Counted from the first letter of the stretch, positions 5,874-58,543 are shown. The stretch: 64,000 bases of DNA from Candidatus Poribacteria bacterium (GCA_026706025.1 JAPOZO010000005.1:291-64290); one strand, 5' to 3'. A program made the numbers and translations. Notes: generated by a model not told the origin, from the sequence alone.

Positions 5874-5936
5874 CTCGACTCCTTTGGTATTTTTGAGACA
5901 CCACTCTGCTCTATGCAGAAGCTGCGCTGTAGGTAT

Positions 5937-6830
5937 TCACTGGTGTTCAAGTTTGCGATAGGCTTTCAGTAATGCCTCTTGAATGTTTAAAAACTCAAGG
6001 TATCCGGGTGGTAGTGGATATTTTGAAACGTCAAACGGTTCTAACGGATTTTCAATCTTTTGCCTTGTAAAGGTATAGAGTGCTTTCTGCACTGCTGTTG
6101 CCTCAGGCACTTGATCAAAAGAGATGCCACAATTGTTTCGCCATAACTGAGGTTCAACGACATCAACCATCGTCTGAATTGATGAGCCTTGATTTCCAAA
6201 CTTTGAATTCAGAAAACAAGTCAACCTCTCGGCTTGTGCGCGTGGCTGATGCACAATATCTTCGTAACCGAGAAAGAGTTTGTGCTGTGCATCTTCTGTG
6301 TGTCGCAAGATGAGCATCATTATATGCTGCCAACGGAGCAAATTCATCGCGACAAAGGAGATACGGACTGGTACATTCGCTGGCATAATAAATTTCTGCC
6401 ACGATACTGCTGTGTCGAGAGGATTGCGAACCGTGATTATGTAGATCGCATCGGTCCATATCCGTTTCCAAAACGGCAAAAAATGGCTGAGTGCTGGATC
6501 TTTCCAGAACCAGGGACCTCCCGTGTCCATTTCAGCCATCAGTTTAGTGGCTTTCTTTCTATATGCAGGGTCAGCGGCTTTTTGCTCCATTCGCTGTTGG
6601 AAATCGTGGTCCCACCAAGTCGCTCCAGTATCAAAATCTCCTAATTCAGCAAGTAAATCCCATAAGGGCAGAAATTCCCAATACCCTCTTGGGGCATGTA
6701 CATCTGCTTTATGTAACTGTTCGGAAGGTCCCGCATACGCGCCCCATCTATGCACCATCTCAGCAACGACAGATGTCCCGCTACGCTCAGCACCGAGCAC
6801 GATAATCGGATGATTTTCGGGGTCCATCAT
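5937..6830 (-). CDS. Sulfotransferase family protein
   Basis: An N-terminal 5'-PSB P-loop (IVLGAERSGTSVV) and a downstream 3'-PB-like motif (ITVRNPLDTAVSW) are characteristic of PAPS-dependent sulfotransferases. Confidence 0.7.
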   Translation of the reverse strand: MMDPENHPIIVLGAERSGTSVVAEMVHRWGAYAGPSEQLHKADVHAPRGYWEFLPLWDLLAELGDFDTGATWWDHDFQQRMEQKAADPAYRKKATKLMAEMDTGGPWFWKDPALSHFLPFWKRIWTDAIYIITVRNPLDTAVSWQKFIMPANVPVRISFVAMNLLRWQHIMMLILRHTEDAQHKLFLGYEDIVHQPRAQAERLTCFLNSKFGNQGSSIQTMVDVVEPQLWRNNCGISFDQVPEATAVQKALYTFTRQKIENPLEPFDVSKYPLPPGYLEFLNIQEALLKAYRKLEHQ

Positions 6831-7061
6831 TCAAATGCCCTCAAGTGTTCGTCAATGATACCTCATACCAACGTGAGTTGACGATTTTTCTTGCATGAAA
6901 CCGTTTTTTACTATATGATGAGGATTTGTGAAGGTGATGTTATCTTTTCGGATTGTGCGTGTTTTAAAGTATAGCATCTTTGAGTGTTTTTCTCTATCAA
7001 AAACAGCGTTCTAATTCCTGCCGCTGAAAGAGCAGGATGTAACATCATAAGGAGGCAAGAA

Positions 7062-7820
7062 GTGAAATACAGACTGAGCGTTATTATAGTTTTAACTATC
7101 GCCATTAGCCTCTGGACTATAGGCGCGTTTGCGGCGGATCTCACGGAAGGACTTGTTGGCTATTGGCCCCTGGATGGCAATGGAAACGACGAATCCGGCA
7201 ATGGAAACGATGCCAACTTGGAAAAAGGCGCGAAATGGTCTGACGACGGTTGGGTGAACGGTGCCGTTGATTTTGATGGTGGCGGCGGACACGTCGTTGT
7301 CGATGATACGTTTGAATTGACAACAACCGCAATCACGGTGATCGCCCGAATCAACGGCTGGAAAACGATAGATTGGTCGGGAATTGTCGTCGGTCGAAGT
7401 GATCCAGCATCGTGGTGGATGGGTGTTGCTGCGAACAATACTCTAACCTACGTATGGAACAATAATTCCGCACAGACCTGGAACTGGCAAGGCGCGCCAG
7501 AAATCCCAGAAAATAAATGGGCGTTGGTCGCAATAGCAATTGAACCTACTAAAGCAACGAGTTACATTTATCACAGAGACAGTGACAAACTTGATGCTGA
7601 GGTAAACGACATCGATCATATTGAACAGACGGTCGTCAATTTAAAGTTCGGATGGGATGAATGCTGCGGTGCCAGATATTTTAAAGGACTGATCGACGAA
7701 GTGATGATCTATGATCGGACGTTGAACGCAGATGACCTCAAAAGGCTGGCAACTGTTGGGCTGCCTGTCGAGAGTAAAGGGAAACTCGCAATCACTTGGG
7801 CAGCACTCAAGAGAGATTAA
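7062..7820 (+). CDS. Secreted LamG / concanavalin A-like lectin-fold domain protein (252 aa from GTG 7062)
   Basis: The RBS AAGGAGG lies 6 nt before GTG 7062 (the ORF track starts earlier at 6984). There is a signal peptide (KYRLSVIIVLTIAISLWTIGAFAADL) and a LamG-type N-terminal motif (LVGYWPLDGNGNDESGNGNDA). It is the same length as the paralog at 48483-49241 and shares the C-terminal tail KLAITWA. Confidence 0.65.
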   Translation: MKYRLSVIIVLTIAISLWTIGAFAADLTEGLVGYWPLDGNGNDESGNGNDANLEKGAKWSDDGWVNGAVDFDGGGGHVVVDDTFELTTTAITVIARINGWKTIDWSGIVVGRSDPASWWMGVAANNTLTYVWNNNSAQTWNWQGAPEIPENKWALVAIAIEPTKATSYIYHRDSDKLDAEVNDIDHIEQTVVNLKFGWDECCGARYFKGLIDEVMIYDRTLNADDLKRLATVGLPVESKGKLAITWAALKRD

Positions 7821-7962
7821 GCGAAATATTGGAAATCAGACTGTCCTGTGTGGCTCAACTGATTTTTGATAAGAGACCTCTCATCATCCAGAGACGATTG
7901 GAATTAATCGAGAATCACCGTGAAGCGAAGTGGAACGGTGACCAGATTTGATAATTTAAAAA

Positions 7963-9705
7963 TTGGAAAAAGTACCTTTTAGGCAATATGCCGCCCTCCT
8001 TTCACAGTATCTTAAACCACAGTGGATACGGGTGACCCTTCTCGCCATCTTCATGTTCACTGGAATAGGTTTGACGCTACTCAACCCACAGATACTTCGT
8101 TATTTTATCGACACAGCAAAAGTGGGCGGCGAAACGCGAAACCTGATTATTGCTGGTGCCGCGTTTTTTGGCATCGGGTTCCTTGGTCAAATGTTGATGT
8201 TAGTCAACACCTATTTAGGGCAAGACATTGGGTGGCGCGCAACGAACTGGATGCGCGGCGACCTCGCACACCACTGCCTACAACTCGACATGTTCTTCCA
8301 CCATGAACATACCCCGGGTGAGATGGTCGAGCGCGTTGACGGCGATACGGCAGCACTGTCAAGCTTTTTTTCTCAGTTCATCGTTCAGGTGTTAGGTAGC
8401 TTGTTGCTGCTCGGAGGCATCCTGATTGTGATTACGCTCGAAGACTGGCGCATCGGTATTGCGTTGGCCGGTTTCGTGGCGGTTTCTATCTATGTTTATA
8501 ATCTCACCCGGAACATTGCTGTTCCCGTCTATACGGCTGAACGAGAGGGTTATTCCAGACTCTTCGGGTTTCTCGAAGAACGGTTAACAGGTATCGAAGA
8601 CCTTCGCACAAACGGCGGTATCGGCTATACCATGGATCGGTTCTACGATGTGAATCGGGATGTATACGGCCGAGCCGTAAAAGCACACGTGATGGGAGAA
8701 GTACTCCAAACAATCAGCGGTGTGCTTTTTGCACTGGGGGTTGCGCTGACGATGGGGATGGCCATCTATCTGTTTCAGATAGGGGTGTTCACAATCGGGA
8801 CGGTTTATCTCGTCATTCATTACACGGCAATGCTCCGAGGTCCGTTGATCACGATCAGTCGGCAGATTAACGATCTCCAACGGGCAACAGCAGGATTCAA
8901 ACGGATTGAAGAACTCTATCGCATCACCCCAAGTATCGCGGATGGAAGAGAGGCACTTTCAGCATCAGACGCACTCGGTATTGAATTCGACCATGTCACA
9001 TTTGGTTACACCGAGGACGAATCGGTGCTGAAAGATGTTTCATTTCAATTGCAGCCGGGGAAATCGCTCGGATTATTGGGAAGAACAGGCAGCGGTAAGA
9101 CAACGATCACACGCCTCCTATTTCGGTTTTATGCAATTAACCAAGGCCAAATTCGCGTCGGCGGCAAGCAAATTGAGCAGATTCGGTTAGACGATTTACG
9201 GAACCGGATCGGCATGGTTACACAGGATGTCCAACTCTTCAATGCAACAGTCCGCGAGAATTTAACGCTCTTTGATGCCGAAATCACCGATAATCGGATC
9301 CTGTCGGTTATTGAAGAACTCGGTTTATCCGAATGGCATCAATCGCTGCCGAACGGGCTTGACACGCTGCTTGACGGTGCTGGTCTGTCTGCAGGAGAGG
9401 CTCAGCTGCTGGCATTTGCGAGGGTTTTCCTCAAAGATCCGAAGATTGTTATCCTTGATGAACCGTCTTCAAGACTTGATCCAGCGACGGAGCAATGTAT
9501 TGACAACGCAGTGCAGCGATTACTCAAAGGACGTACCAGTATCATTATTGCGCATCGACTTGGCACGGTTCAACAGGTAGATGAAATTATGGTTCTCGCC
9601 GACGGTGAAATTCGGGAACACGGCGAGCGAAATCGGCTTGTTCAAGACCCTGATTCCGTCTTCTCACAATTGCTAAGAACCGGGTTAGAGGAGATGACGC
9701 AATGA
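7963..9705 (+). CDS. ABC exporter, fused permease/ATPase (type I exporter, MsbA-like), subunit 1 of a probable heterodimer
   Basis: A 580-aa ORF has an N-terminal 6-TM domain, Walker A (GRTGSGKTT), ABC signature (LSAGEAQLL), Walker B (ILDEPSS) and an H-loop. Its stop overlaps the start of the next ABC gene (ATGA). Confidence 0.9.
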
Positions 9706-11558
9706 CAACAGGCCGAGCGTCTATCCGCCTTATTCGTTACCGTCCACTCCTTTTTCTCGGCACTATCTTTTTTCGAGGATTAGACGACCTAATGCCGTTC
9801 TTCGACGGACTGATTAGGAAGGCATTTTTTGATACACTTGATCCGGTCATTAGCGGCAGTATTCTTTTCCCAGGGTTAGACAACCTAATGCCGTTCCTTG
9901 ACAGACTGATTGGGAAGGTGCTTTTTGGGACGCTTGATCCTGCCACTGGTGGATCGGGTATAGGACTCAACCCGTGGATATTCGTCGCGCTTTTCGTTGT
10001 TGCCCACCTGAGTGATCGAGGTGTACTCATATCGTCTGCCTTCGTATGGGCGCGTTGGCGTTACGCTGTTTCAACGCTGCTCCGAAAAAATCTGATGACA
10101 GCCATCATGAACATGTCGGCACCGCAGCGTGTGTCAACTGCCTCCGGTGAAGCAACGAATCGGTTACGTGACGACGTTCAAGCGATTCTGAGTTATCTGG
10201 AGCAGTACATCCATCTGTGGGGGAATCTCATTTTCGCGATCTTGGCAATCATTTGGATGGCTCGGATTAATGCGACAGTGACAGTGATCACGGTTATCCC
10301 GGCTATCCTGATTATCACAATTGTCAACGTCTCAAGGCGATTTATTCAGAGGTATCGCACAGCGCAACGTATCACTACAGAACAGTCAACAAATTTCGTT
10401 AACGAACTGTTCCAATCCATCTTAGCGGTGAAGGTTGCACGGACGGAGTCGAACGTGATTGCGCATTTTCAGAAACTCAACGATGCGCGCCGCAAGGCGA
10501 CTGTGATGGATAACGTGTTTAATCAAGTCTTGCAATCCATAAGTTCCAATATCAATACACTTGCCACCGGTGTGATCCTGATTCTGATTGCTGAACAGAT
10601 GAAAGCAGGCGTATTCACAGTCGGCGACCTCGCGCTGTTCACTACATATATCGGTGAAGTTGCGAGAAGTGGATCACTTGTCGGCAGTATAATGGCACAG
10701 CACACACGCGCAGCGGTCTCATTCTCCCGCATGGAACAGACGGTTGAAGAGATGCCGAGAGAAAACTTAGTAGAACACACACCGGTATATCTCCGAAAGG
10801 AACAACCGCCACTCGTCACCCCACAACGGACGGAGGATGACCAGTTAGACGAACTCACTGTTACTGGACTTACTTACCGCTATGACGACAACACATCTGG
10901 AATCGCCGATGTTGATTTAAAAATCCCAGCGGGATCGTTCACCGTTGTTACCGGACAGATCGGTTCAGGCAAAACGACGCTGGTTCAAGCACTCTTGGGT
11001 GTCCTACCGAAACAGGCGGGAGAAATTCGCTGGAATGGTGAAACCGTTGAGGATCCGAAATCGTTTTTTATTCCCCCCCGTTGTGCATATACGCCGCAAA
11101 CACCGAAACTCTTCAGCGAAAAACTGAGTGCTAACATCCTTATGGGTTTGCCGTGGAATTGGGACGACCTTAATCGGGCAATTCGACTCGGTGTCATGGA
11201 GACAGATCTACCAACGCTCGAAGACGGTCTTGAAACGGTTGTTGGACCGCGGGGCGTCAAGTTATCAGGTGGACAGATGCAGCGCACCGCAGCGGCACGC
11301 ATGTTTGTCCGAGACTCGGAATTACTCGTATTTGATGATCTCTCGTCTGGACTTGATGTTGAGACGGAACAGACTTTGTGGGAACGCCTCTTTGAAACGA
11401 GACGCGCGACCTGCCTCGTTGTTTCGCATCGACGACCTGCCTTGCGTCGTGCAGATCAAATTATTGTGCTGAAAGACGGTCACGTTGAAGCAGTCGGAAC
11501 GCTGGATGAACTGCTCGCTTCCTCCGAGGAGATGCGGAAGTTGTGGGCAAGCGACTGA
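9702..11558 (+). CDS. ABC exporter, fused permease/ATPase, subunit 2 (has an N-terminal internal duplication)
   Basis: A 618-aa ORF has Walker A (GQIGSGKTT), signature (LSGGQMQR) and Walker B (LVFDDLSS). A 32-aa tandem duplication precedes TM1. Confidence 0.9.
9777..9968 (+). repeat. 96-bp x2 in-frame tandem duplication inside the ABC exporter gene
   Basis: The unit ggattagacgacctaatgccgttcttcgacggactgattaggaagg... recurs at 9873. It encodes [23 protein letters not shown] and then [23 protein letters not shown]. Confidence 0.75.
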
Positions 11559-11649
11559 AGTTGAGTCGAGCATAAAACTTTCACAGGTTTTGCTTTAAGT
11601 AGTGTCCAAGTAATTTCAAAATCTACTATAAAATAAAAAAGAGGCTCTT

Positions 11650-13599
11650 ATGAAAATCAAGGTGTTTTTGGGTCTGATGTTCTTGATTTCTTCAATGTGT
11701 TTGTATGTGTCCGACACGACTGCTGAATATGAACCCTATACGCAACTCGGCTTACCCGAAAGTGCTAAAACGCGCCTCAATAAGGGACAGGTACGTGAAA
11801 TTGCGTATTCCCCGGATAGCACGCTTCTTGCGGTAGCGAGCAGCATCGGTATTTGGATCTATGATGCACAAACCGGTGAAGAACGCAATTTGCTCACGGG
11901 GCATCTGGGGCCGGTCAATAGTGTGGCATTTAGCCCGGATGGAAAAACACTCGCAAGTGGAAGTAGGGACAAGACTCTCCGTTTATGGGATGTCAGCACT
12001 GGCAATCCCATACGCACACTCACAGAGCATCTGGGGCCGGTCAATAGTGTGGTGTTTAGCCCGGATGGGAAAACACTCGCAAGTGGGAGTAAGGATAAAA
12101 CCGTCCGTTTATGGGAGGTCAGCACTGGCAAGCCCATGCGGACACTCATAGGCAATACGACGAGTCCTGTCTATATCTATAGCGTAGCGTTTAGTCCTGA
12201 TGGACAGACGCTCGCAAGTGGGAGTGATGACAAGACTATCCGTCTATGGGATGTCAGCACTGGCAATCTCATACGCACACTCACAGGGCATACGGATGTG
12301 GTTTGGCGCATGGCGTTTAGCTCAGATGGAAAAACACTCGCAAGCGGGAGTAGGGACAAGACTATCCGTTTATGGGATGTCAACACTGGCAATCCCATAC
12401 GCACACTACTCATAGGGTATACGGATACGGATGCGGTTTTGAGCATGGCGTTTAGTCCAGATGGAAAAACACTCGCAAGCGGGAGTAGGGACAGGACTAT
12501 CCGTTATGGAAAAACACTCGCAAGCGGAAATTTTGACCATACTATCCGTTTATGGGATGTCAACACTAACCATCCCATACGCATACTCAGAGGGCATACG
12601 GATGTGGTTTTGAGCATGGCGTTTAGCCCAGATGGAAAAACACTCGCAAGCGGGAGTGGGGACAAGACTATCCGTTTATGGGATGTGGATACTGGCAATC
12701 TCATACGCACACTCACAGGGCATGGGGGTGTGGTCTGGAGCGTATCCTTCAGTCCAGATGGAAAAACACTCGCAAGCGGGAGTTATAAGGAAATCCGTTT
12801 ACGGGATGTCAGCACTGGCACCGCCCTACGCACACTCACAACGGATGCGGTCAAAAGTGTGGCGTTTAGCCCGGATGGACAGACGCTCGCAAGCGGAGGT
12901 TTTGGCAAGAATGGTATCCGTTTATGGGAGGTCAGCACTGGCAATCTTCTGCACAGCCTTCCCTCCACAGGGATCCAGAGTGTGTCGTTCAGTCCAGATG
13001 GGCAAACACTCGCAAGTGGGACTTATCAGGAAATCCGTTTATGGGAGGTCAGCACTGGCAAGCCCATACGTACACTCATAGGGCATGGGGATGTGGTCTG
13101 GAGCGTGGCGTTTAGCCCAGATGAAAAAACAATCGCAAGCGGGAGCGGGGATAAGACCATCCGTTTATGGGACGCGAACACAGGTAATCTCATACGCACA
13201 CTCACAGGACATACTCATCCCATACGCACACTCACAGGGTATACGCGGGCTGTCAGGAGCGTGGCGTTTAGCCCAGATGGAAAAACAATCGCAAGCGGGA
13301 GTGGAGACACGGCTATCCGTTTATGGGATGTGAACACAGGTAATCTCGTCCGCACACTCACAGGGCATACGAATGCAGTCTATAGCGTGGCGTTTAGCCC
13401 AGATGGACAGACGCTCGCAAGTGGGAGCGGGGACAATACCATCCGTTTATGGGAGGTCAGCACTGGCAAGCCCATACGCACATTCACAGGGCATACAGAT
13501 GCAGTCTGGAGCGTGGTGTTTAGCCCGGATAGTGGTACCCTCTCGAGTGGGAGTAGCGACGGCACGATATTCTTGTGGACACTCGCACGGGCAGACTAA
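11650..13599 (+). CDS. Secreted WD40-repeat beta-propeller protein (about 14 WD repeats)
   Basis: The RBS AAGAGG precedes the start. There is a signal peptide (MKIKVFLGLMFLISSMCLYVS) and reiterated units FSPDGKTLASGS.DKTIRLWDVSTG. Strong DNA-level repeats produce many spurious antisense ORFs. Confidence 0.9.
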   Translation: MKIKVFLGLMFLISSMCLYVSDTTAEYEPYTQLGLPESAKTRLNKGQVREIAYSPDSTLLAVASSIGIWIYDAQTGEERNLLTGHLGPVNSVAFSPDGKTLASGSRDKTLRLWDVSTGNPIRTLTEHLGPVNSVVFSPDGKTLASGSKDKTVRLWEVSTGKPMRTLIGNTTSPVYIYSVAFSPDGQTLASGSDDKTIRLWDVSTGNLIRTLTGHTDVVWRMAFSSDGKTLASGSRDKTIRLWDVNTGNPIRTLLIGYTDTDAVLSMAFSPDGKTLASGSRDRTIRYGKTLASGNFDHTIRLWDVNTNHPIRILRGHTDVVLSMAFSPDGKTLASGSGDKTIRLWDVDTGNLIRTLTGHGGVVWSVSFSPDGKTLASGSYKEIRLRDVSTGTALRTLTTDAVKSVAFSPDGQTLASGGFGKNGIRLWEVSTGNLLHSLPSTGIQSVSFSPDGQTLASGTYQEIRLWEVSTGKPIRTLIGHGDVVWSVAFSPDEKTIASGSGDKTIRLWDANTGNLIRTLTGHTHPIRTLTGYTRAVRSVAFSPDGKTIASGSGDTAIRLWDVNTGNLVRTLTGHTNAVYSVAFSPDGQTLASGSGDNTIRLWEVSTGKPIRTFTGHTDAVWSVVFSPDSGTLSSGSSDGTIFLWTLARAD

Positions 13600-16715: not shown

Positions 16716-19700
16716 TTACTGTCCGACATCTGGATCCAGTTCCTTAGCCTTCTCAAAATCTGCTTTTGCGGCTTCCTTCTGCCCAAGTGCCTCTTTCGCA
16801 CGCCCGCGATCGTAGTAAGTTTCTGCAGACTCTGGGTTTATCTCAATGGCTTTATCAAAATCTGTGATTGCGCCTTCCACGTCACCGAGAGCCAACTTTG
16901 CGAGGCCCCGACCGCTATAAGCCTCGGCATCCCCTGGAGCGAGCTTGATGACGTGTGTCCAGTCCTCAATTGCCTCTGCCAAGAGATCTTGTGCCTTTTC
17001 CGCATTCCCCCGAGCGGCCTGAAATTCGCCAAGGCTGAACCGCTGCTTCGCACGAGTGATGTAATCAGGGAGATTTTCCGGGTTGAGCACTTTCGCTTTT
17101 TCAAAGTCAGTTTTTGCGGCTTTATAGAACGTTTGTGCCTTCTCCGTATTGCCACGGGCAGATTCCAAATCACCAAGGTCATCATATAAAACCCCGCGAT
17201 TGTTGTAGACACTGGCATACTTTGGATCTATCTGGATAACCTTATCGTAGTCGGCTATCGCCGTTTCATAAAACGCTTCTGCCTTCTCCGTATTGCCACG
17301 GGCAAATTCCAAACCACCAAGATTGTAGTGTGCCACACCGCGATTATTATAGGCATTGGCATGCTCCGGGGCGAGTTGGATAGCCTCATCATAGTCAGCT
17401 ATCGCCGTCTCATAAAACGCTTCTGCTTTCTCCGTATTGCCACGGGCAGATTCCAAATCACCGAGGCCGTCATATAAAACCCCGCGATTGTTGTAGACAC
17501 CAGTAGACTCTGGATCTATCTGGATAACCTTATCATAGTCAACTATCGCCGCTTTATAGAACGCTTCTGCCTTCTCCGTATTGCCACGGGCAGATTCCAA
17601 ATCACCAAGACTATAGTGTGACACACCGCGATTGTTGTAAACATCAATAGACTCTGGATCTATCTGGATAGCTTTATCATAGTCGGCTATCGCCGCCTCA
17701 TAGAACGCTTCTGCCTTCTCCGTATTGCCACGGGCAGATTCCAAATCACCAAGGTCGTCATATAAAACCCCGCGACTGTTGTAGACACCAGTAGACTTTG
17801 GGGCCAGTTGGATAACCTTATCGTAGTCGGCTATCGCCGCTTTATAGAACGTTTGTGCCTTCTCCGTATTGCCACGGGCAGATTCCAAATCACCAAGGTC
17901 ATCATATAAAACCCCGCGATTGTTGTAGGCATCAGTATGTTCTGGATCAATCTTGATAGCTTTATCATAATCAACTATCGCCGCTTCGTTATTGCCAAGT
18001 TTGGACTTCGCTAATCCGAGATCGAAATAAATATTGAAAATTCCATCATTTATTTTTACGGCTTTATCATAATCGGCTATCGCTGCTTCATAGTTGCCAA
18101 GGGCAAATTGAGCGTCTCCGCGTTTGTAGTAAGGATAAAAAAATTGAGCGTTTATTTTTATGCCTTTATCAAAATTGGCTATCGCTTCATGGTAGTCATT
18201 CGCATTATATTTCATCTGTCCCTGAACGAATAATGCATACGCACGGATAAGTTCTCGCTGCTGCCATTTCGCTAAAGGTTCTGTTGCCTCCGACTGCCCA
18301 AGTAATGCCTTGAGTATACTTGAGGGGATAGCGTAACCGTAATGCTCATTTCCAGCAGCATTAATCCCTACGACTTGTCCACCACTACTACTTAGCACAG
18401 GGCTCCCACTACCGCCACTACCAATATAAGGGGTCATCCGGAGCCATTCATCACCATTGGAAGTACTACATATCGTTCCTTTGATGACTCTGTATCTTTT
18501 GTCAGGGTATCCCACCGCAACAACAGGTTCACCGCTTTGAATAGTTTCACTGTCACCGAGAGATAGCGGGATGCCTTCACCCGCAATCTTTAGGATGACG
18601 AGATCATTTTCCGCATCAAAAGCAGTGACTCCCTCAACAGCCAAGATTTTCGTTTTACCTCTAAGTTTGACGAAAACAGGACCGGGTTGGGCTACAACAT
18701 GGACATTGGTTGCCACCTTGTCTTCCTTCACAAAGAAGCCGCTACCACTATAAAAGCCACCAGCCCAACTCATCACACGGACTGTAGAATCCTTGGCTTT
18801 TTCGGATGTTAAATCCGCTGCTGACTCGTTAACATCCTCCGGATTGCTTAGTTGGATGTATTCATCGTAATCAGTGATGCCGTCGTGATACCACCCCTGC
18901 GCTTTCCCAGCATCACCGCGTGCGGACTCAATATCGCCAAGTTTACATTTTACTGTTGCCTGATTCTCATAAGCCTCAGTATATTTTGGATTAATCTCAA
19001 TAGCTTGTCTATAGTCCGAAATCGCCGATTCATATAACGCTTCTGTTCTCTCCGTATTTCCGCGGGAGGATTCTAATTTACCAAAGGCAGACTTCGCCAG
19101 TCCTCGATTGTTGTAAGTATTAGCACCCTCTGGATCAATCGTGATAGCGTGTATATAGTCTTCAATCGCCGATTCATACAAATACTGTGCTTCTTTGGCA
19201 TTCTCGCGGGCAGCTTCGGATTCGCCAAGCCTGAACTTCATCAATCCCCGATCATTGTAGGCGGAGTCATCCTCTGGATTTACCTTGATGACTTGCGTAA
19301 AATCTTCAATCGCCGATTCATATAACGCTTCTGTTTTCTCAGGATTGCCGTGGTCCGATTCTAATTTACCAAGGGCCAACCTCACGCCACCACGATTACG
19401 ATAGAAACCAACATCCTCTGGATTTACGTTGATGGCTTGCGTAAAATCTTCAATCGCTGTTTTATACAAACGCTCCGCTTCTTTAGTATTCCCACGTGCG
19501 TTCTCGGATTCGCCAAACTTGAATTTTGCGGTTCCACGATTGTTGTAGATAGTCGCATCCTCTGCCTCAATCTGGATCGCCCTATTGAAATCAAGTATTG
19601 CCCCTTCAAAGTCGTCAAGAGATGCCTTGGCGGCACCGCGAAAATTATAGGTATGGGCATACTCTGGATCCACCTGGATCGCTTTATCGCAATCGGCTAT

Positions 19701-20765
19701 CGCCGCTTCATATAAACGCTGTGCTTTCTCAGCATTCCCGCGTGCAGATTCAGACTCTCCCAATCTACATTTTATACCACCTCGATTGCTATAAGCATCG
19801 GCATACTGAGCGTCAAGTTCAATGGCTTTATCAAGATCAACAATTGCATCAGTATAGTCACCAAGGTGTGCCTTCACGCTCCCACGGAGGAAGTAAGCAT
19901 CAGGGGCATCCGGATCTATTTTAATAACTCGCGTACAGGAAGCAATCGCGCTGTCATAGTTCCCAAGATGATCTTGAGTTCTTCCGCGCTCGTAGTAGGC
20001 ACGGACATACGCGGGGTTAAACGCAATCGCTTTATCAAAGTCAACGAGCGCGCCCGCATAATCTTTGGCACCGAATTTTTCTTTCCCTAAACCGTAGTAC
20101 GCCGCAGCGCGAATCTGTTCTCGTTGCTGCCATTCCGTCAAAGGTTCCATTGGTATAGGCTCAGCAAGTAACGCCGCAAGCACGCTTGAAGAAATTGTGT
20201 AATCACCATACGGCACAATAACCCCGATGACTTGACCCTTATTGTTAAACACTGGACTGCCATTAGTTTTTTTAGCAGTTGTTGTATTTAACCTGAGCCA
20301 CCTATCATTTTTTAGGATGCTTTGTATACGACTTTCCGAAACCTTGAATGCTCCATTAGGATAACCGGAGATAGAAACAGACTCACCAATTTGAACCCTA
20401 TCCGCCAAAGGCAGTGGCTTGCCTTTATTTCCAAGTTTTAGAATAACAAGGCTGTTTTTCGCATCAAATCCAACAACACCTTCTATCGTCCAATCTTTCT
20501 CTTTGTCGGGAGATTTTACGGAAACAGAACCAATGTGAGCGACGACGTGAGTGCTCGTCGCAACCATGTCCGGTGCAATGAAGAATCCTGTTCCAGATGC
20601 GTTTTCACTCTCAATCAATACAATAGAATCTCTGATTTTTTCGGACGTTAAGTCCGCAGTCGGTGCGACGGGTTTCTCGGAAACCACCTGCTGCGGTGCC
20701 TGTGCACAAGAGATGAAAAAACTTAAGACCAAAAAAAGAAATAAAAATTTGGTGTTTCGTTTCAT
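16716..20765 (-). CDS. Lipoprotein with two trypsin-like serine protease domains and about 28 TPR repeats (1349 aa); fourth gene of the tandem array
   Basis: A lipobox (FFISC) is present. Domain 1 retains the catalytic His (ATSTHVV), but its Ser motif is KKTNGSPV instead of GxSGGP. Domain 2 at aa 640-800 has TNVHVV / NDLVILK / GSGGSGSPV. TPR units ending ...Y.NRG... are repeated many times. The C-terminus ends DPDVGQ, like the paralogs. Confidence 0.85.
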   Translation of the reverse strand: MKRNTKFLFLFLVLSFFISCAQAPQQVVSEKPVAPTADLTSEKIRDSIVLIESENASGTGFFIAPDMVATSTHVVAHIGSVSVKSPDKEKDWTIEGVVGFDAKNSLVILKLGNKGKPLPLADRVQIGESVSISGYPNGAFKVSESRIQSILKNDRWLRLNTTTAKKTNGSPVFNNKGQVIGVIVPYGDYTISSSVLAALLAEPIPMEPLTEWQQREQIRAAAYYGLGKEKFGAKDYAGALVDFDKAIAFNPAYVRAYYERGRTQDHLGNYDSAIASCTRVIKIDPDAPDAYFLRGSVKAHLGDYTDAIVDLDKAIELDAQYADAYSNRGGIKCRLGESESARGNAEKAQRLYEAAIADCDKAIQVDPEYAHTYNFRGAAKASLDDFEGAILDFNRAIQIEAEDATIYNNRGTAKFKFGESENARGNTKEAERLYKTAIEDFTQAINVNPEDVGFYRNRGGVRLALGKLESDHGNPEKTEALYESAIEDFTQVIKVNPEDDSAYNDRGLMKFRLGESEAARENAKEAQYLYESAIEDYIHAITIDPEGANTYNNRGLAKSAFGKLESSRGNTERTEALYESAISDYRQAIEINPKYTEAYENQATVKCKLGDIESARGDAGKAQGWYHDGITDYDEYIQLSNPEDVNESAADLTSEKAKDSTVRVMSWAGGFYSGSGFFVKEDKVATNVHVVAQPGPVFVKLRGKTKILAVEGVTAFDAENDLVILKIAGEGIPLSLGDSETIQSGEPVVAVGYPDKRYRVIKGTICSTSNGDEWLRMTPYIGSGGSGSPVLSSSGGQVVGINAAGNEHYGYAIPSSILKALLGQSEATEPLAKWQQRELIRAYALFVQGQMKYNANDYHEAIANFDKGIKINAQFFYPYYKRGDAQFALGNYEAAIADYDKAVKINDGIFNIYFDLGLAKSKLGNNEAAIVDYDKAIKIDPEHTDAYNNRGVLYDDLGDLESARGNTEKAQTFYKAAIADYDKVIQLAPKSTGVYNSRGVLYDDLGDLESARGNTEKAEAFYEAAIADYDKAIQIDPESIDVYNNRGVSHYSLGDLESARGNTEKAEAFYKAAIVDYDKVIQIDPESTGVYNNRGVLYDGLGDLESARGNTEKAEAFYETAIADYDEAIQLAPEHANAYNNRGVAHYNLGGLEFARGNTEKAEAFYETAIADYDKVIQIDPKYASVYNNRGVLYDDLGDLESARGNTEKAQTFYKAAKTDFEKAKVLNPENLPDYITRAKQRFSLGEFQAARGNAEKAQDLLAEAIEDWTHVIKLAPGDAEAYSGRGLAKLALGDVEGAITDFDKAIEINPESAETYYDRGRAKEALGQKEAAKADFEKAKELDPDVGQ

Positions 20766-34083: not shown

Positions 34084-34839
34084 ATGGCACCTGAAGAAAC
34101 AGGTTTAACACCCGCACAAAAAACGTTCTACGAGGCAAACGGATATCTTGTCCTTAAAAGTGTTTTTGCGCCCGAAGAGTGCGAACACTTCGTTGAACAT
34201 ATAGAAGACCTTCACGCCGGACGTAAGCATCTGGATGGATTTTTTCAACAGGATAAATACGGCGCAAGGACCTTTAATCAGCATCTTTACGACCCGCGCG
34301 TATTGGCTTTACTTATCAATGCCCGCTTACATAAGCCGCTTGCGGACTGTTTTGGCGGCGAACCGGAGGGGATTCAAACGATGCACTTTTATGAAGGATC
34401 CGAGCATCCCCTGCACCAAGACCAGTATTACCTACCGGATTGTATGTCGGCCTGGATTGCGATGGTTCGTGTCGATGAGAACAACGGACCGCTGGTCGTC
34501 CAGCCCGGTTCGCATAAAGGTAGATTGATTACGAAAAGCGACATACCTATGACACTCCAACCCGGAGAGACTTATGAATTACAACAGCATAACCGCTATT
34601 TTCCGGCAGTTGAACAGGTCTTTCGCGAGAACGGTAAAGACGCGGTTCAGGTGTTGGTAAACCCAGGAGATGTGGTTCTGTTCAGCGGAAAATTGATTCA
34701 TGGGGGTGCGCAAGTTTTGAAACCGGGGACGCGCAGACATGCGTTGGCGTGCCACTACATTCCATACGACTCCGAAAACTGGGAACGCGATTGGCCACGG
34801 TTCTCATTCGACGGCAGTCGGCGGATTCATTATCGGTAA
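34084..34839 (+). CDS. Phytanoyl-CoA dioxygenase (PhyH) family Fe(II)/2OG oxygenase
   Basis: The RBS AAGGAGG precedes the start. The HxD motif is HPLHQDQYY. The C-terminal motifs are NGPLVVQPGSHK and GDVVLFSGKLIHGG. Confidence 0.8.
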   Translation: MAPEETGLTPAQKTFYEANGYLVLKSVFAPEECEHFVEHIEDLHAGRKHLDGFFQQDKYGARTFNQHLYDPRVLALLINARLHKPLADCFGGEPEGIQTMHFYEGSEHPLHQDQYYLPDCMSAWIAMVRVDENNGPLVVQPGSHKGRLITKSDIPMTLQPGETYELQQHNRYFPAVEQVFRENGKDAVQVLVNPGDVVLFSGKLIHGGAQVLKPGTRRHALACHYIPYDSENWERDWPRFSFDGSRRIHYR

Positions 34840-50251: not shown

Positions 50252-50482
50252 CTATTTAGATGAATGCAACTCCATAAATTCGTTGACACCGAGTTGTGCC
50301 TGTCTGATAATGCTACGCAAGGTGCCTCTATCCAGTTCCTTGTGATTCGGGACAACAACTTGGGCGAATGGCTTATCACGACGCAAAATCAGATGACTGC
50401 CCTGCTGTCGTCTGAGGTAAAATCCTACTTTGGCAAGGGTTTTCACACATTCTTTCCCTGAAATCCTCGGTAACCCACTCAT
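50252..50482 (-). CDS. hicA: HicA-family mRNA interferase toxin
   Basis: A 76-aa ORF carries GKECVKTLAKVGFYLRRQQGSHLIL, the YcfA/HicA double-stranded-RNA-binding-like fold signature. Confidence 0.8.
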   Translation of the reverse strand: MSGLPRISGKECVKTLAKVGFYLRRQQGSHLILRRDKPFAQVVVPNHKELDRGTLRSIIRQAQLGVNEFMELHSSK

Positions 50483-50685
50483 ACGGCTAACAACAACGCC
50501 TCAAAATGTTCTTCAGGTACCGGCAGTCCATCTTCTTTAAGGGCAACAATATATCCGTCAATTGCTTCTCTGATATTGCTGACAGCTTCTTGCTTTGTTT
50601 CAGCTTGACTGATACAACCGGGTAAACTGGGGCATTCAGCAACCCAATAACCATCTTCACCCGGATAAATAACCACTTGTCTCAC
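50479..50685 (-). CDS. hicB: HicB-family antitoxin (UPF0150)
   Basis: A 68-aa ORF carries YPGEDGYWVAECPSLPGCISQAETKQEAVSNIREAI, the RNase-H-like partial fold of HicB. It overlaps hicA by 4 nt. Confidence 0.75.
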   Translation of the reverse strand: MRQVVIYPGEDGYWVAECPSLPGCISQAETKQEAVSNIREAIDGYIVALKEDGLPVPEEHFEALLLAV

Positions 50686-54069: not shown

Positions 54070-55188
54070 TTACGTCCGAACCGGTTGAAATGGTTCCAGT
54101 GACAGTGAAGGTCGCCCGGTTGTTAGCAGTTCAGCGATGAGTTGCCCCGTGATCGGTGCGAGGAGAATACCATTTTTGAAATGTCCAGATGCCAAGACAA
54201 CATTGTCATATCCGGGTAGATAGCCGAGCAGGGGACCGTTTTTGGCATAAGGACGTAAACCTGCCCACGTTTGCACAAAAGTGCTGTGTGCGAGTTGAGG
54301 AGCGATGGCAATGCCCGCGTCAATCATCTGCTTTGCTCCATCTACCGTCGCGGTTTTGTCATAGCCGACGTATTCGACAGTTGCCCCGAGTAGAATTTTG
54401 CCATCCGCCCTCGGCACGATATAGATACCCAGTCCATCAACAATATGTCGAAAAGGTGGCGGCATTGCTTCAATGAGAACAATTTGTCCCTTCGCGGGTC
54501 CAATCTGTATTGGCACATCAAGCTGAGCCGTTAGTGCCCCCGCCCAGCACCCAGCGGCAATCACGAAGGTATTCGCGTATACAGTTTCACCGTTTACAAC
54601 GACCCCAATGAGGCGTTTCCCCTCATACTCACTGTCTCGGATAAAGTTCGTAACAGGGTTGCCGAGTAGGAACTGCGCACCGAGTTGCGCAGCAGCTTTT
54701 GCGAGTGCAATCACCATTTTGGGGTTGCGCACCTGGGCATCCTCAGGAAACAGAACTGCCCCAGCGATAGATTTTGAGAGTGCTGGCTCTAACTGCCACG
54801 CCCCTGCAGGGGTCAAGATTTCCGCTGAAAAGCCGCGTTTTACGCGCCGATCTGCAAGACCTATTAACCCTGCAGCCTCAACCTCGTTAAAAAATACCGA
54901 CAGCGTGCCAGACTGAATAAACTCAATATCAATCTGGGTTTCCGCACGAAGTTCTTCCGCCAACGTCGGATAGAGTGCGAGACTCGCTCGGCAGAGCGTC
55001 GGATACGGTTCATGCGTTGTGGCATGTGAGGTTAAAATCCCTGCACCTGCCCACGAGGCTTCTGTACCGACAGCGGTTGCTTTGTCAATCAATAGCGGTT
55101 TTATGTCTCGCTTGGCAAGATTGTAAGCAATGGCACATCCGATAATACCCCCACCGATAATGATGACATCTGCATGATTTCGGTTCAA
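54070..55188 (-). CDS. FAD-dependent glycine oxidase / D-amino-acid oxidase family (ThiO-like)
   Basis: The N-terminal dinucleotide motif is DVIIIGGGIIGCAIAYNLA. The C-terminus has GHFKNGILLAP, typical of DAO-family enzymes. Confidence 0.75.
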   Translation of the reverse strand: MNRNHADVIIIGGGIIGCAIAYNLAKRDIKPLLIDKATAVGTEASWAGAGILTSHATTHEPYPTLCRASLALYPTLAEELRAETQIDIEFIQSGTLSVFFNEVEAAGLIGLADRRVKRGFSAEILTPAGAWQLEPALSKSIAGAVLFPEDAQVRNPKMVIALAKAAAQLGAQFLLGNPVTNFIRDSEYEGKRLIGVVVNGETVYANTFVIAAGCWAGALTAQLDVPIQIGPAKGQIVLIEAMPPPFRHIVDGLGIYIVPRADGKILLGATVEYVGYDKTATVDGAKQMIDAGIAIAPQLAHSTFVQTWAGLRPYAKNGPLLGYLPGYDNVVLASGHFKNGILLAPITGQLIAELLTTGRPSLSLEPFQPVRT

Positions 55189-55445
55189 GTTTTCCTCCGC
55201 CTTATCAGAAATCGCAACGACTACAAGTTACAGATAGTTTAGCATAGAATCGGTCGTTTGTCAATCTGGCTTGAGGCATTCAGCCATCAGTAAGTGTAGC
55301 GAAAAAATCTTACACGGAAAATCGAAACTATACGAGAACTGAAGGGTTCTGGTTTATACACATTTTTGGATGCACTTTACTGAGGTGCAAAGATAAAAAC
55401 ATATCCAAAAACCGGTATTCAGGAGATCATTTTGTGGATTGTCGC

Positions 55446-55474
55446 TTGAATTCTCAACGGGTTTCGTGTATAAT
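55446..55474 (+). promoter_or_regulatory. Sigma70-like promoter (TTGAAT, 17-nt spacer, TATAAT) upstream of eutN-like gene
   Basis: TTGAAT is at 55446-55451 and TATAAT at 55469-55474, about 58 nt before the ATG. Confidence 0.4.
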
Positions 55475-55531
55475 TTTTAGAGAAATAGTGCAAAGTGAAC
55501 TATTTTTAACTCATAAGAAAGGTTTAAGTAA

Positions 55532-55819
55532 ATGATCCTTGGAAAAGTTACTGGGACAATCGTCGCGACGCAGAAAGATGAAAAACTCATCGGAAGCAAA
55601 CTGATGGTTGTCCAAGATGTGGATCTGAATGGAGAAGTAGACCGAAAATATACAGTCGCTGTGGATGCGGTTGGCGCGGGTATCGGCGAGATTGTCCTCG
55701 TCGCAACGGGGAGTTCTGCTCGACAGACCCAAGTTACATCAAACAAACCGATCGATGCCGTGATTATGGCGATTGTTGATACCGTAGAAGTCGCCGGAAA
55801 AGTTCGGTATCATAAGTAG
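55532..55819 (+). CDS. Bacterial microcompartment vertex protein (EutN/CcmL/PduN family, BMC-V)
   Basis: The motifs MILGKVTGTIVATQKDEKLIGSKLMVVQ ... AVDAVGAGIGEIVLVATGSSAR ... IDAVIMAIVD match the pentameric BMC vertex family. Confidence 0.85.
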   Translation: MILGKVTGTIVATQKDEKLIGSKLMVVQDVDLNGEVDRKYTVAVDAVGAGIGEIVLVATGSSARQTQVTSNKPIDAVIMAIVDTVEVAGKVRYHK

Positions 55820-55864
55820 GAACGGGATCGGGGTTACACACGCGCATCTATAAGGAAAAAAATA

Positions 55865-56434
55865 ATGGAACGTGAACACGTCCGCGCTGAAGTGCTTCGC
55901 CAACGCGATGAACTCGCACCGGAAGTCCGTGCCGCGTTCAGCCGACAGATTGTCGATTCGGTTATGTCTTGGATACAAAATGAGGGTTTCGATGCCGTGA
56001 TGCTCTATCTCAACATGCGGAGCGAGGTCGAAACGGACAGTCTCCTTGAAAGGTTGCTCCACTCAGGAACACATGTCTGCGCACCTGTTGTAGATACGGA
56101 CGAAAACCGACTCATACCGCGGCGAATTCAGAAAGGAAAAACAGCGTTGGTACGGCATCGCTACGGTATGTTAGAACCGAACACAGCATGCCCACTTGTT
56201 CCCATAACCGAGCTTCAACTCATTATCGTTCCCGGTATCGCTTTTGATTGTAAAGGGTATCGCCTCGGATACGGTAAAGGTTTCTACGACCGATTTCTTG
56301 CAGCGTGTTCACACACTATCCCGATTGGACTGGCATACCAGATACAAGTCGTAGAAGATACGTTCCCGCAAGTATGGGATGTACCAGTTAAACACATTTT
56401 TACAGAGACCAATAGGATAGACAGTCATGAATAA
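55865..56434 (+). CDS. 5-formyltetrahydrofolate cyclo-ligase (MTHFS)
   Basis: The C-terminal signature is IIVPGIAFDCKGYRLGYGKGFYDRFL. Confidence 0.85.
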   Translation: MEREHVRAEVLRQRDELAPEVRAAFSRQIVDSVMSWIQNEGFDAVMLYLNMRSEVETDSLLERLLHSGTHVCAPVVDTDENRLIPRRIQKGKTALVRHRYGMLEPNTACPLVPITELQLIIVPGIAFDCKGYRLGYGKGFYDRFLAACSHTIPIGLAYQIQVVEDTFPQVWDVPVKHIFTETNRIDSHE

Positions 56435-56478
56435 AGCGTTGGACGCGGCACGGGGACCACGTCCAAGAAAAGAGTAGC

Positions 56479-56886
56479 TCACTTGGCATCAACAAAGGGT
56501 CTCAACTTTTCCAGCGTCTTTACCCCGATCCCCTTGACGTTCTGAATAGCATCTACACTGTCAAAATCGCCGTGTTGCGTCCGGTAATCCACAATCCGTT
56601 GTGCTGTCGCCTCGCCAATGTTGGGGAGGGTTTGAAGTTCCTCAGTTGAAGCAGTATTGATGTTAAGAAGTGCCGGTTTGTTTAGGGTCGACTTTGCCCG
56701 ATTTTGTGGATGTTCGTCGTTCGGAACAGCGATCAGGTCCGGTTTTCCAAGGAACACCACTGGTGCGAATCGCCGCAACCCCCAGAAACCTGCCCCCGCT
56801 AAAATCAGTATCACGAGGAAAGTAACTGCCCGCCAATAATGGCGTTCCACTGCATTTTCCACGTTATTCATCTCTATTTTCCTCAA
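56479..56886 (-). CDS. comEA: ComEA-like helix-hairpin-helix DNA-binding protein
   Basis: An N-terminal TM segment is present. The C-terminal tandem HhH is LNINTASTEELQTLPNIGEATAQRIVDYR...VKGIGVKTLEKL. Confidence 0.75.
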   Translation of the reverse strand: MRKIEMNNVENAVERHYWRAVTFLVILILAGAGFWGLRRFAPVVFLGKPDLIAVPNDEHPQNRAKSTLNKPALLNINTASTEELQTLPNIGEATAQRIVDYRTQHGDFDSVDAIQNVKGIGVKTLEKLRPFVDAK

Positions 56887-58543
56887 GAGACAGCACCTGG
56901 TTTGCAGGCACGGATTTAATCAGTTGCTTTACGCCACTTTGCCACTGAATCTCAATGCTGTCCACCTGTTTGTAATCTCCAATACCGAAATGGAGCGTGA
57001 GATCACGTTGTGAGAGATAGCCGTCGCCACTCCTCACTTCACGCGTCTGTGTGAGTTCCCCTATTTTTATTTTAACGCGCGCACCAATCGCATCTATAGA
57101 ACCCTGCGTTGCAACCAATCGGATTTGCAAATAGTTTTTTCGGTTACCACCATCGTTGCGCAAGAGACGAGGGGTAGCGTTTGAATTCGTCACCACGATA
57201 TCAAGGTCGCCATCCGAATCGTAATCAGCAAAGGTAGCACCGCGGCTTACGTCCTCTAACTTCATGCCGGGCCCGAGGGTTTCTGAGACTTCGGTAAAGG
57301 TGCCGTTATAGTTGTTGCGGAAAAGCAAATTGCGCTGTTCGTAAGTGCCTTGCTGTCCGAGTTCGGCGAGATTCTCGTGAAGATGTCCATTGGCGACGAA
57401 GAGGTCTTGGTAGCCGTCGTTGTCGTAATCAATAAAGGCGGTTGCCCATCCGAGGTAAGGATAGGTAAGCTGCGCAGTCTTTGTTGTGGCTGTTGCGTCT
57501 GTAAAGAAGCCGTCAGCATCGTTATGGTAGAGGGTGTTGGTCTGTTGCGCATAGTTGGTGACGGTGAGATCAAACCATCCGTCGTTGTTCCAATCGCCAA
57601 AGGCAGTACCCATACCGTTTTCGGCGGCACCGTTCTCGCTGAGTGCCACGCCAATCATGAAACCGACCTCCTCAAAAGTGCCATCACTATTATTATGATA
57701 AAAGAGGTTTTCCGTAGAATCGTTCGCGACGTAAATGTCCAATGCCCCATCATTATTATAGTCACCCCAGACAACGCCTAATCCTTTGCCGGTCGTATTG
57801 TAAATGCCTGCGGATTTCGTGGCATCGGTAAATGTTCCGTCCCCGTTGTTGCGAAACAGCGTATCCGATTGGGCGGGGAAGTTATCAGGTTCACAGTAAG
57901 CGCGGATGCCTTTCTCTTTAAGTCCGCACCACGGATTTTCATCAATGTCAAAGACGATGTAGTTGACGACGTAGAGATCGAGGTTGCCATCGCGGTCGTA
58001 GTCAGCAAAGGCACAACTGGAACTCCAACGAGGCTCCGTCACGCCAGCAACTTCGGCAACATCCGTAAAAGTACCATCGCCGTTATTGCGGTAGAGTCGA
58101 TTGGTGCCGTAGTTTGTGACGTAAAGATCTAATTGACCGTCGTTATTGTAATCGCCGACTGCACATCCGTGTCCGTAGCCGGTATCTCCAACGCCGGACT
58201 CTTCTGTGACATCCGTGAACGTACCATCACCGTTATTGCGGTAGAGGCAATTGGTAGGAATATCGTCAGCGACGTAACCGGGGAGCGGTGCGCCGTTAAC
58301 GAAGTACAAATCGGGGTCGCCATCAGCGTCGTAATCAAAAAAAGCGGCACCGGAACCGAGCGTCTCCATAAAATATTTCTGTCCACTCCGACCATCAGTG
58401 TGTTGCCAATGGATACCGGCTTCCTGCGTCACATCAACGAATTGGATACCTGTGTCCGCGTTTGCTGGCGGCACGCTGGCACCCCACAAAATGACGATTA
58501 GAAAGCGTATAAAAATATCTATAGGGGTATTTCGTCTTTTCAT
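56864..58543 (-). CDS. Secreted FG-GAP/VCBS repeat protein with ASPIC/UnbV-like C-terminus (CRTAC1 family)
   Basis: A signal peptide is present. The unit LYRNNGDGTFTDV...DYD.DGxLDLYV is repeated, as is characteristic of the CRTAC1 family. Confidence 0.75.
   Translation of the reverse strand: MKRRNTPIDIFIRFLIVILWGASVPPANADTGIQFVDVTQEAGIHWQHTDGRSGQKYFMETLGSGAAFFDYDADGDPDLYFVNGAPLPGYVADDIPTNCLYRNNGDGTFTDVTEESGVGDTGYGHGCAVGDYNNDGQLDLYVTNYGTNRLYRNNGDGTFTDVAEVAGVTEPRWSSSCAFADYDRDGNLDLYVVNYIVFDIDENPWCGLKEKGIRAYCEPDNFPAQSDTLFRNNGDGTFTDATKSAGIYNTTGKGLGVVWGDYNNDGALDIYVANDSTENLFYHNNSDGTFEEVGFMIGVALSENGAAENGMGTAFGDWNNDGWFDLTVTNYAQQTNTLYHNDADGFFTDATATTKTAQLTYPYLGWATAFIDYDNDGYQDLFVANGHLHENLAELGQQGTYEQRNLLFRNNYNGTFTEVSETLGPGMKLEDVSRGATFADYDSDGDLDIVVTNSNATPRLLRNDGGNRKNYLQIRLVATQGSIDAIGARVKIKIGELTQTREVRSGDGYLSQRDLTLHFGIGDYKQVDSIEIQWQSGVKQLIKSVPANQVLSLEENRDE

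Follow-up and report, generated by a model that had tools for sequence, protein, structure and literature searches.

The locus described here raises the question of why a gene for a vertex protein of a microcompartment (BMC) should stand beside a gene of folate metabolism and apart from other shell genes. We analyzed the whole stretch of DNA in which it lies (64 kb, here called the window) and compared the locus with its counterparts in Poribacteria and in other phyla. The features of the locus and of its immediate neighbors are collected in Table 1.

TABLE 1 Features at the BMC-P locus, in positions of the 64-kb window
Feature	Position	Strand	Basis
Glycine oxidase ThiO, divergent neighbor, outside the BMC system	54070-55188	-	PF01266; TIGR02352, 268 bits vs cut-off 250.8
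Sigma-70-type promoter-like site, TTGAAT (-35), 17-nt spacer, TATAAT (-10)	55446-55474	+	Consensus scan, 10/12 matches
Shine-Dalgarno-like GAAAGG, 9 nt 5' of the ATG	55517-55522	+	Read from sequence
BMC-P (EutN/CcmL family) vertex-pentamer gene, 95 aa	55532-55819	+	PF03319
45-nt spacer with AAGGA ribosome-binding site for MTHFS	55820-55864	+	Sequence
5-Formyltetrahydrofolate cyclo-ligase (MTHFS) gene, 189 aa	55865-56434	+	PF01812, TIGR02727
GC-rich hairpin, 11-bp stem, between convergent MTHFS and comEA	56439-56466		Terminator-like call, - strand
ComEA-type helix-hairpin-helix protein, convergent neighbor	56479-56886	-	PF12836, TIGR00426

The preliminary description had called the first of the two genes a clear BMC-V pentamer gene, and the domain and structural evidence bears this out. 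The PF03319 (EutN_CcmL) profile was matched with an E value of 1.7e-30 and a score of 105.8 bits (cut-off, 25) over profile positions 1 to 83 of 83 and thus at full length. The protein consists of this single domain without extensions, and its 95 residues are within the usual BMC-P size of approximately 90 to 100. Its best relative of solved structure is the shell pentamer of Haliangium ochraceum (PDB entries 5V74 and 6MZX; E value of 5e-28, 55% identity), a protein of 96 residues that aligns with it end to end. An AlphaFold model (40 homologs) had a pLDDT of 92 and the BMC-P beta-barrel fold, and could be superposed on the CcmL and H. ochraceum BMC-P chains of assembled shells with a TM score of 0.93 and an rmsd of 1.2 to 1.3 Å. 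In a Foldseek search of the PDB with this model, every one of the top 47 matches (E value of 0.001 or less) was a BMC-P protein.

The protein also carries both motifs for docking to hexamers, GAGIGE at residues 48 to 53 and IVD at residues 81 to 83, which are likewise found in the H. ochraceum protein, and residues G48, A49, G50, E53, I81, V82, and D83 are invariant in an alignment of 40 homologs. The sequence I(V/I)D reportedly serves BMC-P proteins as a hexamer-docking motif. The GAGxGE motif has been described as supplying the pentamer side of the salt bridge between pentamer and hexamer (PMC13370225). From the fold and these motifs, we infer that the protein acts at shell vertices. It shares its Pfam family and its fold with CcmL of the beta-carboxysome and EutN of the ethanolamine BMC. 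However, it scores below the cut-offs of both NCBIfam equivalogs (105.8 versus 125 for CcmL, NF053795; 76.7 versus 118 for EutN, NF011992), and it is neither a carboxysome nor a Eut protein, so that "EutN" is a family label only.

According to the preliminary description, no BMC-H or BMC-T gene, aldehyde dehydrogenase (AldDH), or other signature enzyme lies within at least 8 kb on either side of the gene. This isolation was confirmed, and it extends over the whole 64-kb window. Searches of the window by tblastn with PduA, CcmK2, and EutM as probes (E value of 10 or less) gave only chance-level matches to BMC-H, the best with an E value of 0.76, and tblastn found no second EutN in the window. 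No PF00936, PF00171, PF06130, PF00596, or PduS-like domain was detected by Pfam among 44 window ORFs and the gene calls of locus L001, whose precomputed Pfam assignments covered what remained of the window on its right-hand side. The same isolation is seen in the phylum, where neither a BMC-H gene nor a second BMC-P gene was found within 10 kb in any of 13 species-level loci. A database search for Poribacterial BMC-H proteins was made with two queries, a profile of 16 BMC-H proteins adjoining orthologs of the window gene and the BMC-H of a sponge-associated Latescibacterota locus (L088); with each of them, the best 120 matches listed came from other phyla only, and the four loci looked up from these matches were consolidated and lay outside Poribacteria.

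We then considered the relatives of the gene in other phyla. Species representatives of GTDB were scanned for relatives of the window protein, and the resulting 80 loci, 67 of them non-Poribacterial and 13 Poribacterial, were screened by tblastn. The closest relatives outside Poribacteria, at 55 to 66% identity, belong to consolidated aldolase/AldDH loci (PVM-like or ACI-like) of Planctomycetota, Latescibacteria-like bacteria, Chloroflexota, Myxococcota, and others, in which they are flanked by BMC-H, AldDH, BMC-T, two more BMC-P genes, class II aldolase, PduL, and acetate kinase. In these loci, the relative is in every case the pentamer gene that comes next after BMC-H. In contrast, the 55 kb upstream and the 8 kb downstream of the window gene contain none of these flanking genes. 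The consolidated loci of other phyla read PduL, BMC-H, BMC-P, AldDH, one or two further BMC-P genes, class II aldolase, and acetate kinase; the order in one planctomycetotal locus (L077) is BMC-H, BMC-P, AldDH, PduS-like, BMC-T, BMC-P, BMC-P, and class II aldolase. A BMC-H gene lies within 10 kb in 46 of the 67 non-Poribacterial loci, and further BMC-P genes are present in 44. Another 15 of the 67 (Ignavibacteria, Bacteroidota, and related groups) are tandems of BMC-P genes without BMC-H, an arrangement that fits the FRAG1 pattern. In 41 of the 67 loci, the BMC-H gene stands no more than 600 nt upstream on the same strand, which argues that the window gene is, as judged by gene order, the counterpart of the pentamer gene that directly follows the main BMC-H gene in other phyla. 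This correspondence suggests that the ancestral function was a pathway for a sugar-derived aldehyde.

The locus itself, its isolation from shell genes, and its folate-enzyme neighbor were already published in 2014, and as a stand-alone finding the locus is ordinary. The "BMC group C" of the single-cell genome SAG 3G consists of a glycine oxidase gene, a PF03319 gene of 288 nt, MTHFS, and ComEA, and in the variant of SAG 4E a two-component system lies between the PF03319 gene and MTHFS (Kamke 2014, PMC3909097). The window has the four-gene order of SAG 3G, including the MTHFS-ComEA side, and represents the same locus in another genome of the same phylum; the two arrangements that we observed among Poribacteria, with and without the two-component system, are those of SAGs 4E and 3G. 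In that study, however, the two arrangements were not polarized and the gene was not related to the BMC-H-adjacent pentamer of consolidated loci. What is new here is this orthology and the origin of the BMC-P-MTHFS pair by deletion, which is set out below.

The preliminary description had regarded the gene as an orphan, and as either a satellite of a distant BMC locus or a moonlighting use of the fold. It is no orphan in the genomic sense, since three BMC-P genes, together with one or two for BMC-H, have been reported per Poribacterial genome (Kamke 2014, PMC3909097; Sutter 2021, PMC8217296). It is on these surveys of SAGs and MAGs that the co-occurrence of BMC-H with the window gene rests. 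SAG 3G has one PF00936 and three PF03319 genes, all at different sites, and genes of the two families generally lie in separate regions in Poribacteria (Kamke 2014, PMC3909097). Every Poribacterial BMC locus has been classed as "satellite-like" (Axen 2014, PMC4207490). The FRAG2 type, to which 21 of its 33 loci are contributed by Poribacteria, comprises a BMC-P triplet and two BMC-H genes scattered over the genome and has no known signature enzyme (Sutter 2021, PMC8217296). The window comes from the same phylum, and its BMC-P gene is isolated; the same catalogue enters a 95-aa Poribacterial BMC-P protein, A0A2D6S7N3, under the label "FRAG2 (sat)" and places it in fadedGreen1, a green clade (Sutter 2021, PMC8217296).

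Of the two branches proposed for the gene, the satellite branch is in essence correct, and the moonlighting branch found no support. The full-length domain, the docking motifs, the 55% identity to the H. ochraceum pentamer, and the purifying selection described below speak for a canonical BMC-P protein. The window contains one shell Pfam type, a single PF03319 gene with no PF00936 gene in 64 kb, as in the satellite loci of Axen 2014 (PMC4207490). A strict satellite locus, however, requires that the same genome also have a main BMC locus that is not itself a satellite (Axen 2014, PMC4207490), with both shell types, and Poribacteria are reported to be without one. The idea of a single distant BMC locus was thus not upheld; with all shell genes scattered in the phylum, the term is FRAG2 or "satellite-like" rather than classic satellite. 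H. ochraceum differs in that its shell genes lie in a main locus and in defined satellites with aldolase and AldDH, whereas the window gene has no adjacent enzyme partner.

These data suggest that the window gene encodes a canonical BMC-P pentamer of the Poribacterial FRAG2 BMC and that MTHFS is its accidental neighbor, an explanation to which, taken as a whole, we assign a probability of about 0.8. The gene would be one of three vertex-protein paralogs of this fragmented BMC. An ancestral locus with AldDH, class II aldolase, and PduL would have been broken in Poribacteria into three pieces, one with BMC-H and PduL, another with two BMC-P genes in tandem, and the last with the single BMC-P gene of the window, each at its own site, and these fragments would map onto pieces of the consolidated loci. 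The BMC-P protein would be made from its own conserved sigma-70 promoter and would dock by GAGxGE and IVD onto BMC-H hexamers made elsewhere, closing the vertices of the shell. MTHFS would be a housekeeping gene of folate salvage and not cargo; in the clade of the window, the loss of two regulator genes (approximately 3.3 kb) would have brought the BMC-P gene to within 45 nt of MTHFS, with which it would probably be co-transcribed. For BMC-H and the remaining BMC-P genes of Poribacterial genomes, as for expression in situ, we rely on the literature.

Published observations bear on whether such a shell is closed. In Poribacteria, immunolabeling of BMC-H gave ring-shaped signals at the cell membrane, and no polyhedral bodies were seen (Jahn 2016). 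Polyhedral bodies have not been reported from the phylum, for which a classical closed shell is accordingly a prediction. BMC-P triplets, moreover, exceed the need of 12 vertices, which has been taken as a hint at an additional role (Sutter 2021, PMC8217296). Together with the scattering of the shell genes, the missing signature enzyme of FRAG2, and the position of the BMC-P gene at the head of an array with a two-component system in most Poribacteria, these observations would fit a role of BMC-P and BMC-H in membrane-associated or open assemblies, or extra BMC-P paralogs that are not vertex caps. However, the length, fold, and docking motifs of the window protein are indistinguishable from those of the vertex pentamers of solved shells, and outside Poribacteria its orthologs form part of complete metabolosome loci. 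Metatranscriptomic data for SAG 3G in sponge (FPKM of 299.6 for BMC-P, 306.7 for the adjacent MTHFS, and 1047 for BMC-H; Jahn 2016 Supplementary Data S1) place the BMC-P transcript level with that of MTHFS and approximately 3.5-fold below that of BMC-H, and a BMC-H to BMC-P ratio of about 3.5:1 is in the direction expected of a shell. We therefore consider a non-canonical role of this kind unlikely.

The array with the two-component system allows a more specific proposal. In loci L017 to L021, L023, L091/92, and L095/96, the BMC-P gene and MTHFS are separated by genes for a histidine kinase and a sigma-54 response regulator. The orthologs of these two share 56 to 88% identity (kinase) and 57 to 82% identity (response regulator), and they resemble AtoS/AtoC and NtrC. 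The green-clade BMC-P could accordingly be imagined as part of a signaling-linked module of an AtoS/AtoC-like kinase and a sigma-54 activator, with the shell proteins in a non-polyhedral, membrane-associated assembly such as the ring-shaped BMC-H label may hint at (Jahn 2016). We regard this as a rather improbable reading; if it were true, the dispersal of the FRAG2 genes would mark a break with the model of the microcompartment as a closed shell. The window contains a single match to the sigma-54 promoter consensus, fewer than chance would give, and it lies well away from the locus. Under the preferred reading of a canonical vertex pentamer, the conserved two-component system beside the BMC-P gene in most Poribacteria is a better lead to the inducing signal; function should not be read from the presence of MTHFS.

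The reasons for setting MTHFS aside lie in the protein and in the history of the locus. The identity of the enzyme is well supported (PF01812, E value of 5.5e-37; MTHFS equivalog TIGR02727, MTHFS_bact, 161.2 bits versus a cut-off of 84.9, model positions 2 to 182 of 182). Its catalytic domain takes up residues 4 to 181 of 189, which leaves 3 and 8 residues at the ends. An encapsulation peptide, an amphipathic helix of approximately 15 to 20 aa with a linker, would find no room in the predicted protein, which on this ground does not qualify as cargo. Among Poribacteria, 12 of 13 species-level loci have MTHFS downstream of the BMC-P gene, in the same orientation and no more than 4 kb away. The two genes are directly adjacent only in the clade with at least 92% identity to the window in BMC-P (the window, L011 to L015, and L022), where they are separated by 20 to 60 nt and where the kinase and response regulator genes are missing. 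Locus L016 has kept both regulators and has no MTHFS within 10 kb, and the BMC-P gene of L093/L094 is solitary.

In an outgroup-rooted NJ tree of BMC-P, built on 95 residues only and with 70% bootstrap for the monophyly of the Poribacteria-type sequences, the clade without regulators (93% bootstrap) is nested and is the sister of L016 to L021 (94%). In the same tree of this protein, the regulator-bearing L023/L095 and L091 branch earlier than the clade without regulators. The nested position of this clade and the earlier branching of regulator-bearing lineages argue that a four-gene array of BMC-P, histidine kinase, sigma-54 response regulator, and MTHFS is ancestral in Poribacteria and that the adjacency of BMC-P and MTHFS is derived, by a loss of approximately 3.3 kb in one clade. 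The pairing thus looks like a historical accident of gene deletion.

The preliminary description had also proposed that the BMC-P gene has its own near-consensus promoter and that it forms an operon with an MTHFS gene 45 bp downstream. The spacer is exactly 45 nt long, and the promoter was substantiated by comparison. As a count, the sigma-70-like sites are unremarkable (3 found versus 2.6 expected by chance; chance alone could account for one in 1.8 kb). Despite this chance-level count, we accept the site upstream of the BMC-P gene as its predicted promoter because the two hexamers stand in register in most of 15 Poribacterial upstream regions although the flanks are otherwise unalignable. 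In this alignment, the TTG of the -35 element and the T, A, A, and T of the -10 element are invariant or nearly so, and no blocks are conserved other than these two elements and the ribosome-binding site GAAAGG; the block GAAAGGTTT in the Shine-Dalgarno region is kept in 15 of the 15 regions. An Rfam scan of positions 54900 to 57000 (E value of 1 or less), which includes the 343-nt spacer between thiO and the BMC-P gene, returned no riboswitch or other RNA, and the 64-kb window contains no tRNA.

The operon proposal divided. As a transcription unit it is probably real in the clade of the window; the two genes are on the same strand, no terminator-like site was found on the + strand in the 45-nt spacer, and the published FPKM values of the two genes in SAG 3G are equal. 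MTHFS would then probably be driven by the BMC-P promoter. The GC-rich hairpin downstream of MTHFS has no T-run on the + strand and is likely a shared transcript end of the convergent genes, at which the BMC-P-MTHFS transcript may also stop. As a conserved pairing, the operon did not hold, since the kinase and response regulator genes intervene in the other sampled Poribacterial lineages with MTHFS nearby and none of the 67 non-Poribacterial loci has MTHFS within 10 kb.

These same observations weigh on the possibility that BMC-P and MTHFS form a selected module, either with MTHFS and folate chemistry tied to the BMC or with the pentamer employed in one-carbon metabolism. The linkage in 12 of 13 Poribacterial loci can be read as more than chance. 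Such a module would account for this linkage and its tightening to 20 to 60 nt in the clade of the window, for the near-identical transcript levels in SAG 3G, and for the glycine oxidase gene thiO on the other side of the BMC-P gene, where synteny is kept in 10 of the 13 GTDB loci of Poribacteria. Set against it are the absence of room for an encapsulation peptide in MTHFS, the two regulators that split the pair, the solitary BMC-P gene of L093/L094, and the lack of any such linkage outside Poribacteria. Moreover, FRAG genomes gave no matches to encapsulation peptides (Sutter 2021, PMC8217296), and in L091 MTHFS simply precedes rsmH, ftsL, and a PBP gene at the start of a cell-division cluster. 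Functional coupling of the two proteins is consequently very unlikely.

The accidental-neighbor reading leaves the status of the BMC-P gene itself, which is under strong purifying selection. Compared with six species-level relatives, its dN/dS is 0.04 to 0.06 at a dS of 0.6 to 0.9. BMC-P is also more conserved than its neighbors, being 92 to 96% identical in genome pairs in which MTHFS is only 68 to 76% and ThiO 82 to 87% identical. Of the 120 homolog clusters listed, all but a few have an intact reading frame of 95 aa. That the gene is a decaying leftover of a lost BMC locus, as the lack of any other BMC gene in the 64-kb window might suggest and as the low BMC-H copy number and nearby transposases led others to raise for Poribacteria (Kamke 2014, PMC3909097), is hardly tenable and is effectively refuted by this selection, the intact frame, the conserved promoter and ribosome-binding site, and the transcription of BMC-P in sponge tissue. 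The gene is real and functional, and it probably encodes an ordinary vertex protein of the fragmented BMC known from Poribacteria as FRAG2. Two further candidate explanations were rejected: a pseudogene, on the dN/dS values and the published expression, and horizontal transfer, on a GC content of 0.48 that is like that of the flanks, and so gives no sign of an island, and on synteny that is stable phylum-wide.

FRAG-type BMCs are common in candidate phyla as well as in the dominant phylum of sponge symbionts. The close homologs of the window protein carry the name Candidatus Poribacteria, and an identical BMC-P protein is encoded, in the same gene order, on 14 contigs from sponge metagenomes.

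In most Poribacterial lineages, the gene for the vertex pentamer BMC-P was found to be the first in a conserved same-strand array, where it is followed by genes for a histidine kinase resembling AtoS and a sigma-54 response regulator of NtrC/AtoC-like type, and then by MTHFS, the gene for 5-formyl-THF cyclo-ligase. This two-component system is missing throughout the 64-kb window. For the signal that controls the FRAG2 compartment, the fragmented type with scattered shell genes, the two-component system is a better lead than MTHFS.

In the Poribacterial locus L016, the kinase gene that follows BMC-P came up in tblastn as two overlapping segments, pointing to a frameshift or truncation, and no MTHFS was found downstream within 10 kb. 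L016 may therefore represent an intermediate stage in the loss of the regulator module. In a further lineage, represented by L093 and L094, BMC-P has a Bmp lipoprotein gene on one side and Laminin_G_3 genes on the other, and neither the regulator nor MTHFS alongside. Because this copy is wholly solitary, it shows that the BMC-P gene changes position within the phylum.

Loci found outside Poribacteria by searching for the shell hexamer BMC-H, in putatively Latescibacteria-like genomes, have the gene order PduL, one or two BMC-H, BMC-P, AldDH, one or two further BMC-P, class II aldolase and acetate kinase. These consolidated loci appear to be an intact counterpart of the shell gene set that is fragmented in Poribacteria.

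Coordinates of the loci and window genes discussed
Feature	Location	Strand	Remark
BMC-P/two-component/MTHFS array	about 10300-13500 in each of L017-L021, L023, L091, L092, L095, L096
Histidine kinase gene	L016 10336-11652
Solitary BMC-P gene	L093/L094 10001-10288		69% identical to window protein
Consolidated BMC loci	about 5500-13000 in each of L098, L100-L103		complete genomes, same metagenome projects
Four peptidase/TPR genes	window 16716-25559	-	consecutive; 1349, 725, 329 and 511 aa
Two large WD40 beta-propeller proteins and two PhyH-family dioxygenases	window 11650-13599, 39793-41829, 34084-34839, 43384-44427	+, -, +, -
HicA toxin/HicB antitoxin pair	window about 50252-50685	-	gene calls of identical contig L001

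Elsewhere in the window, all four peptidase/TPR genes encode a trypsin-like serine peptidase domain (PF13365) together with long TPR arrays, and they are a tandem paralog family. The WD40 and PhyH genes match the "eukaryote-like repeat" and PhyH signature described as typical of Poribacteria (Kamke 2014; PMC3909097). The HicA/HicB pair is situated upstream of the BMC-P locus, 5 kb away.
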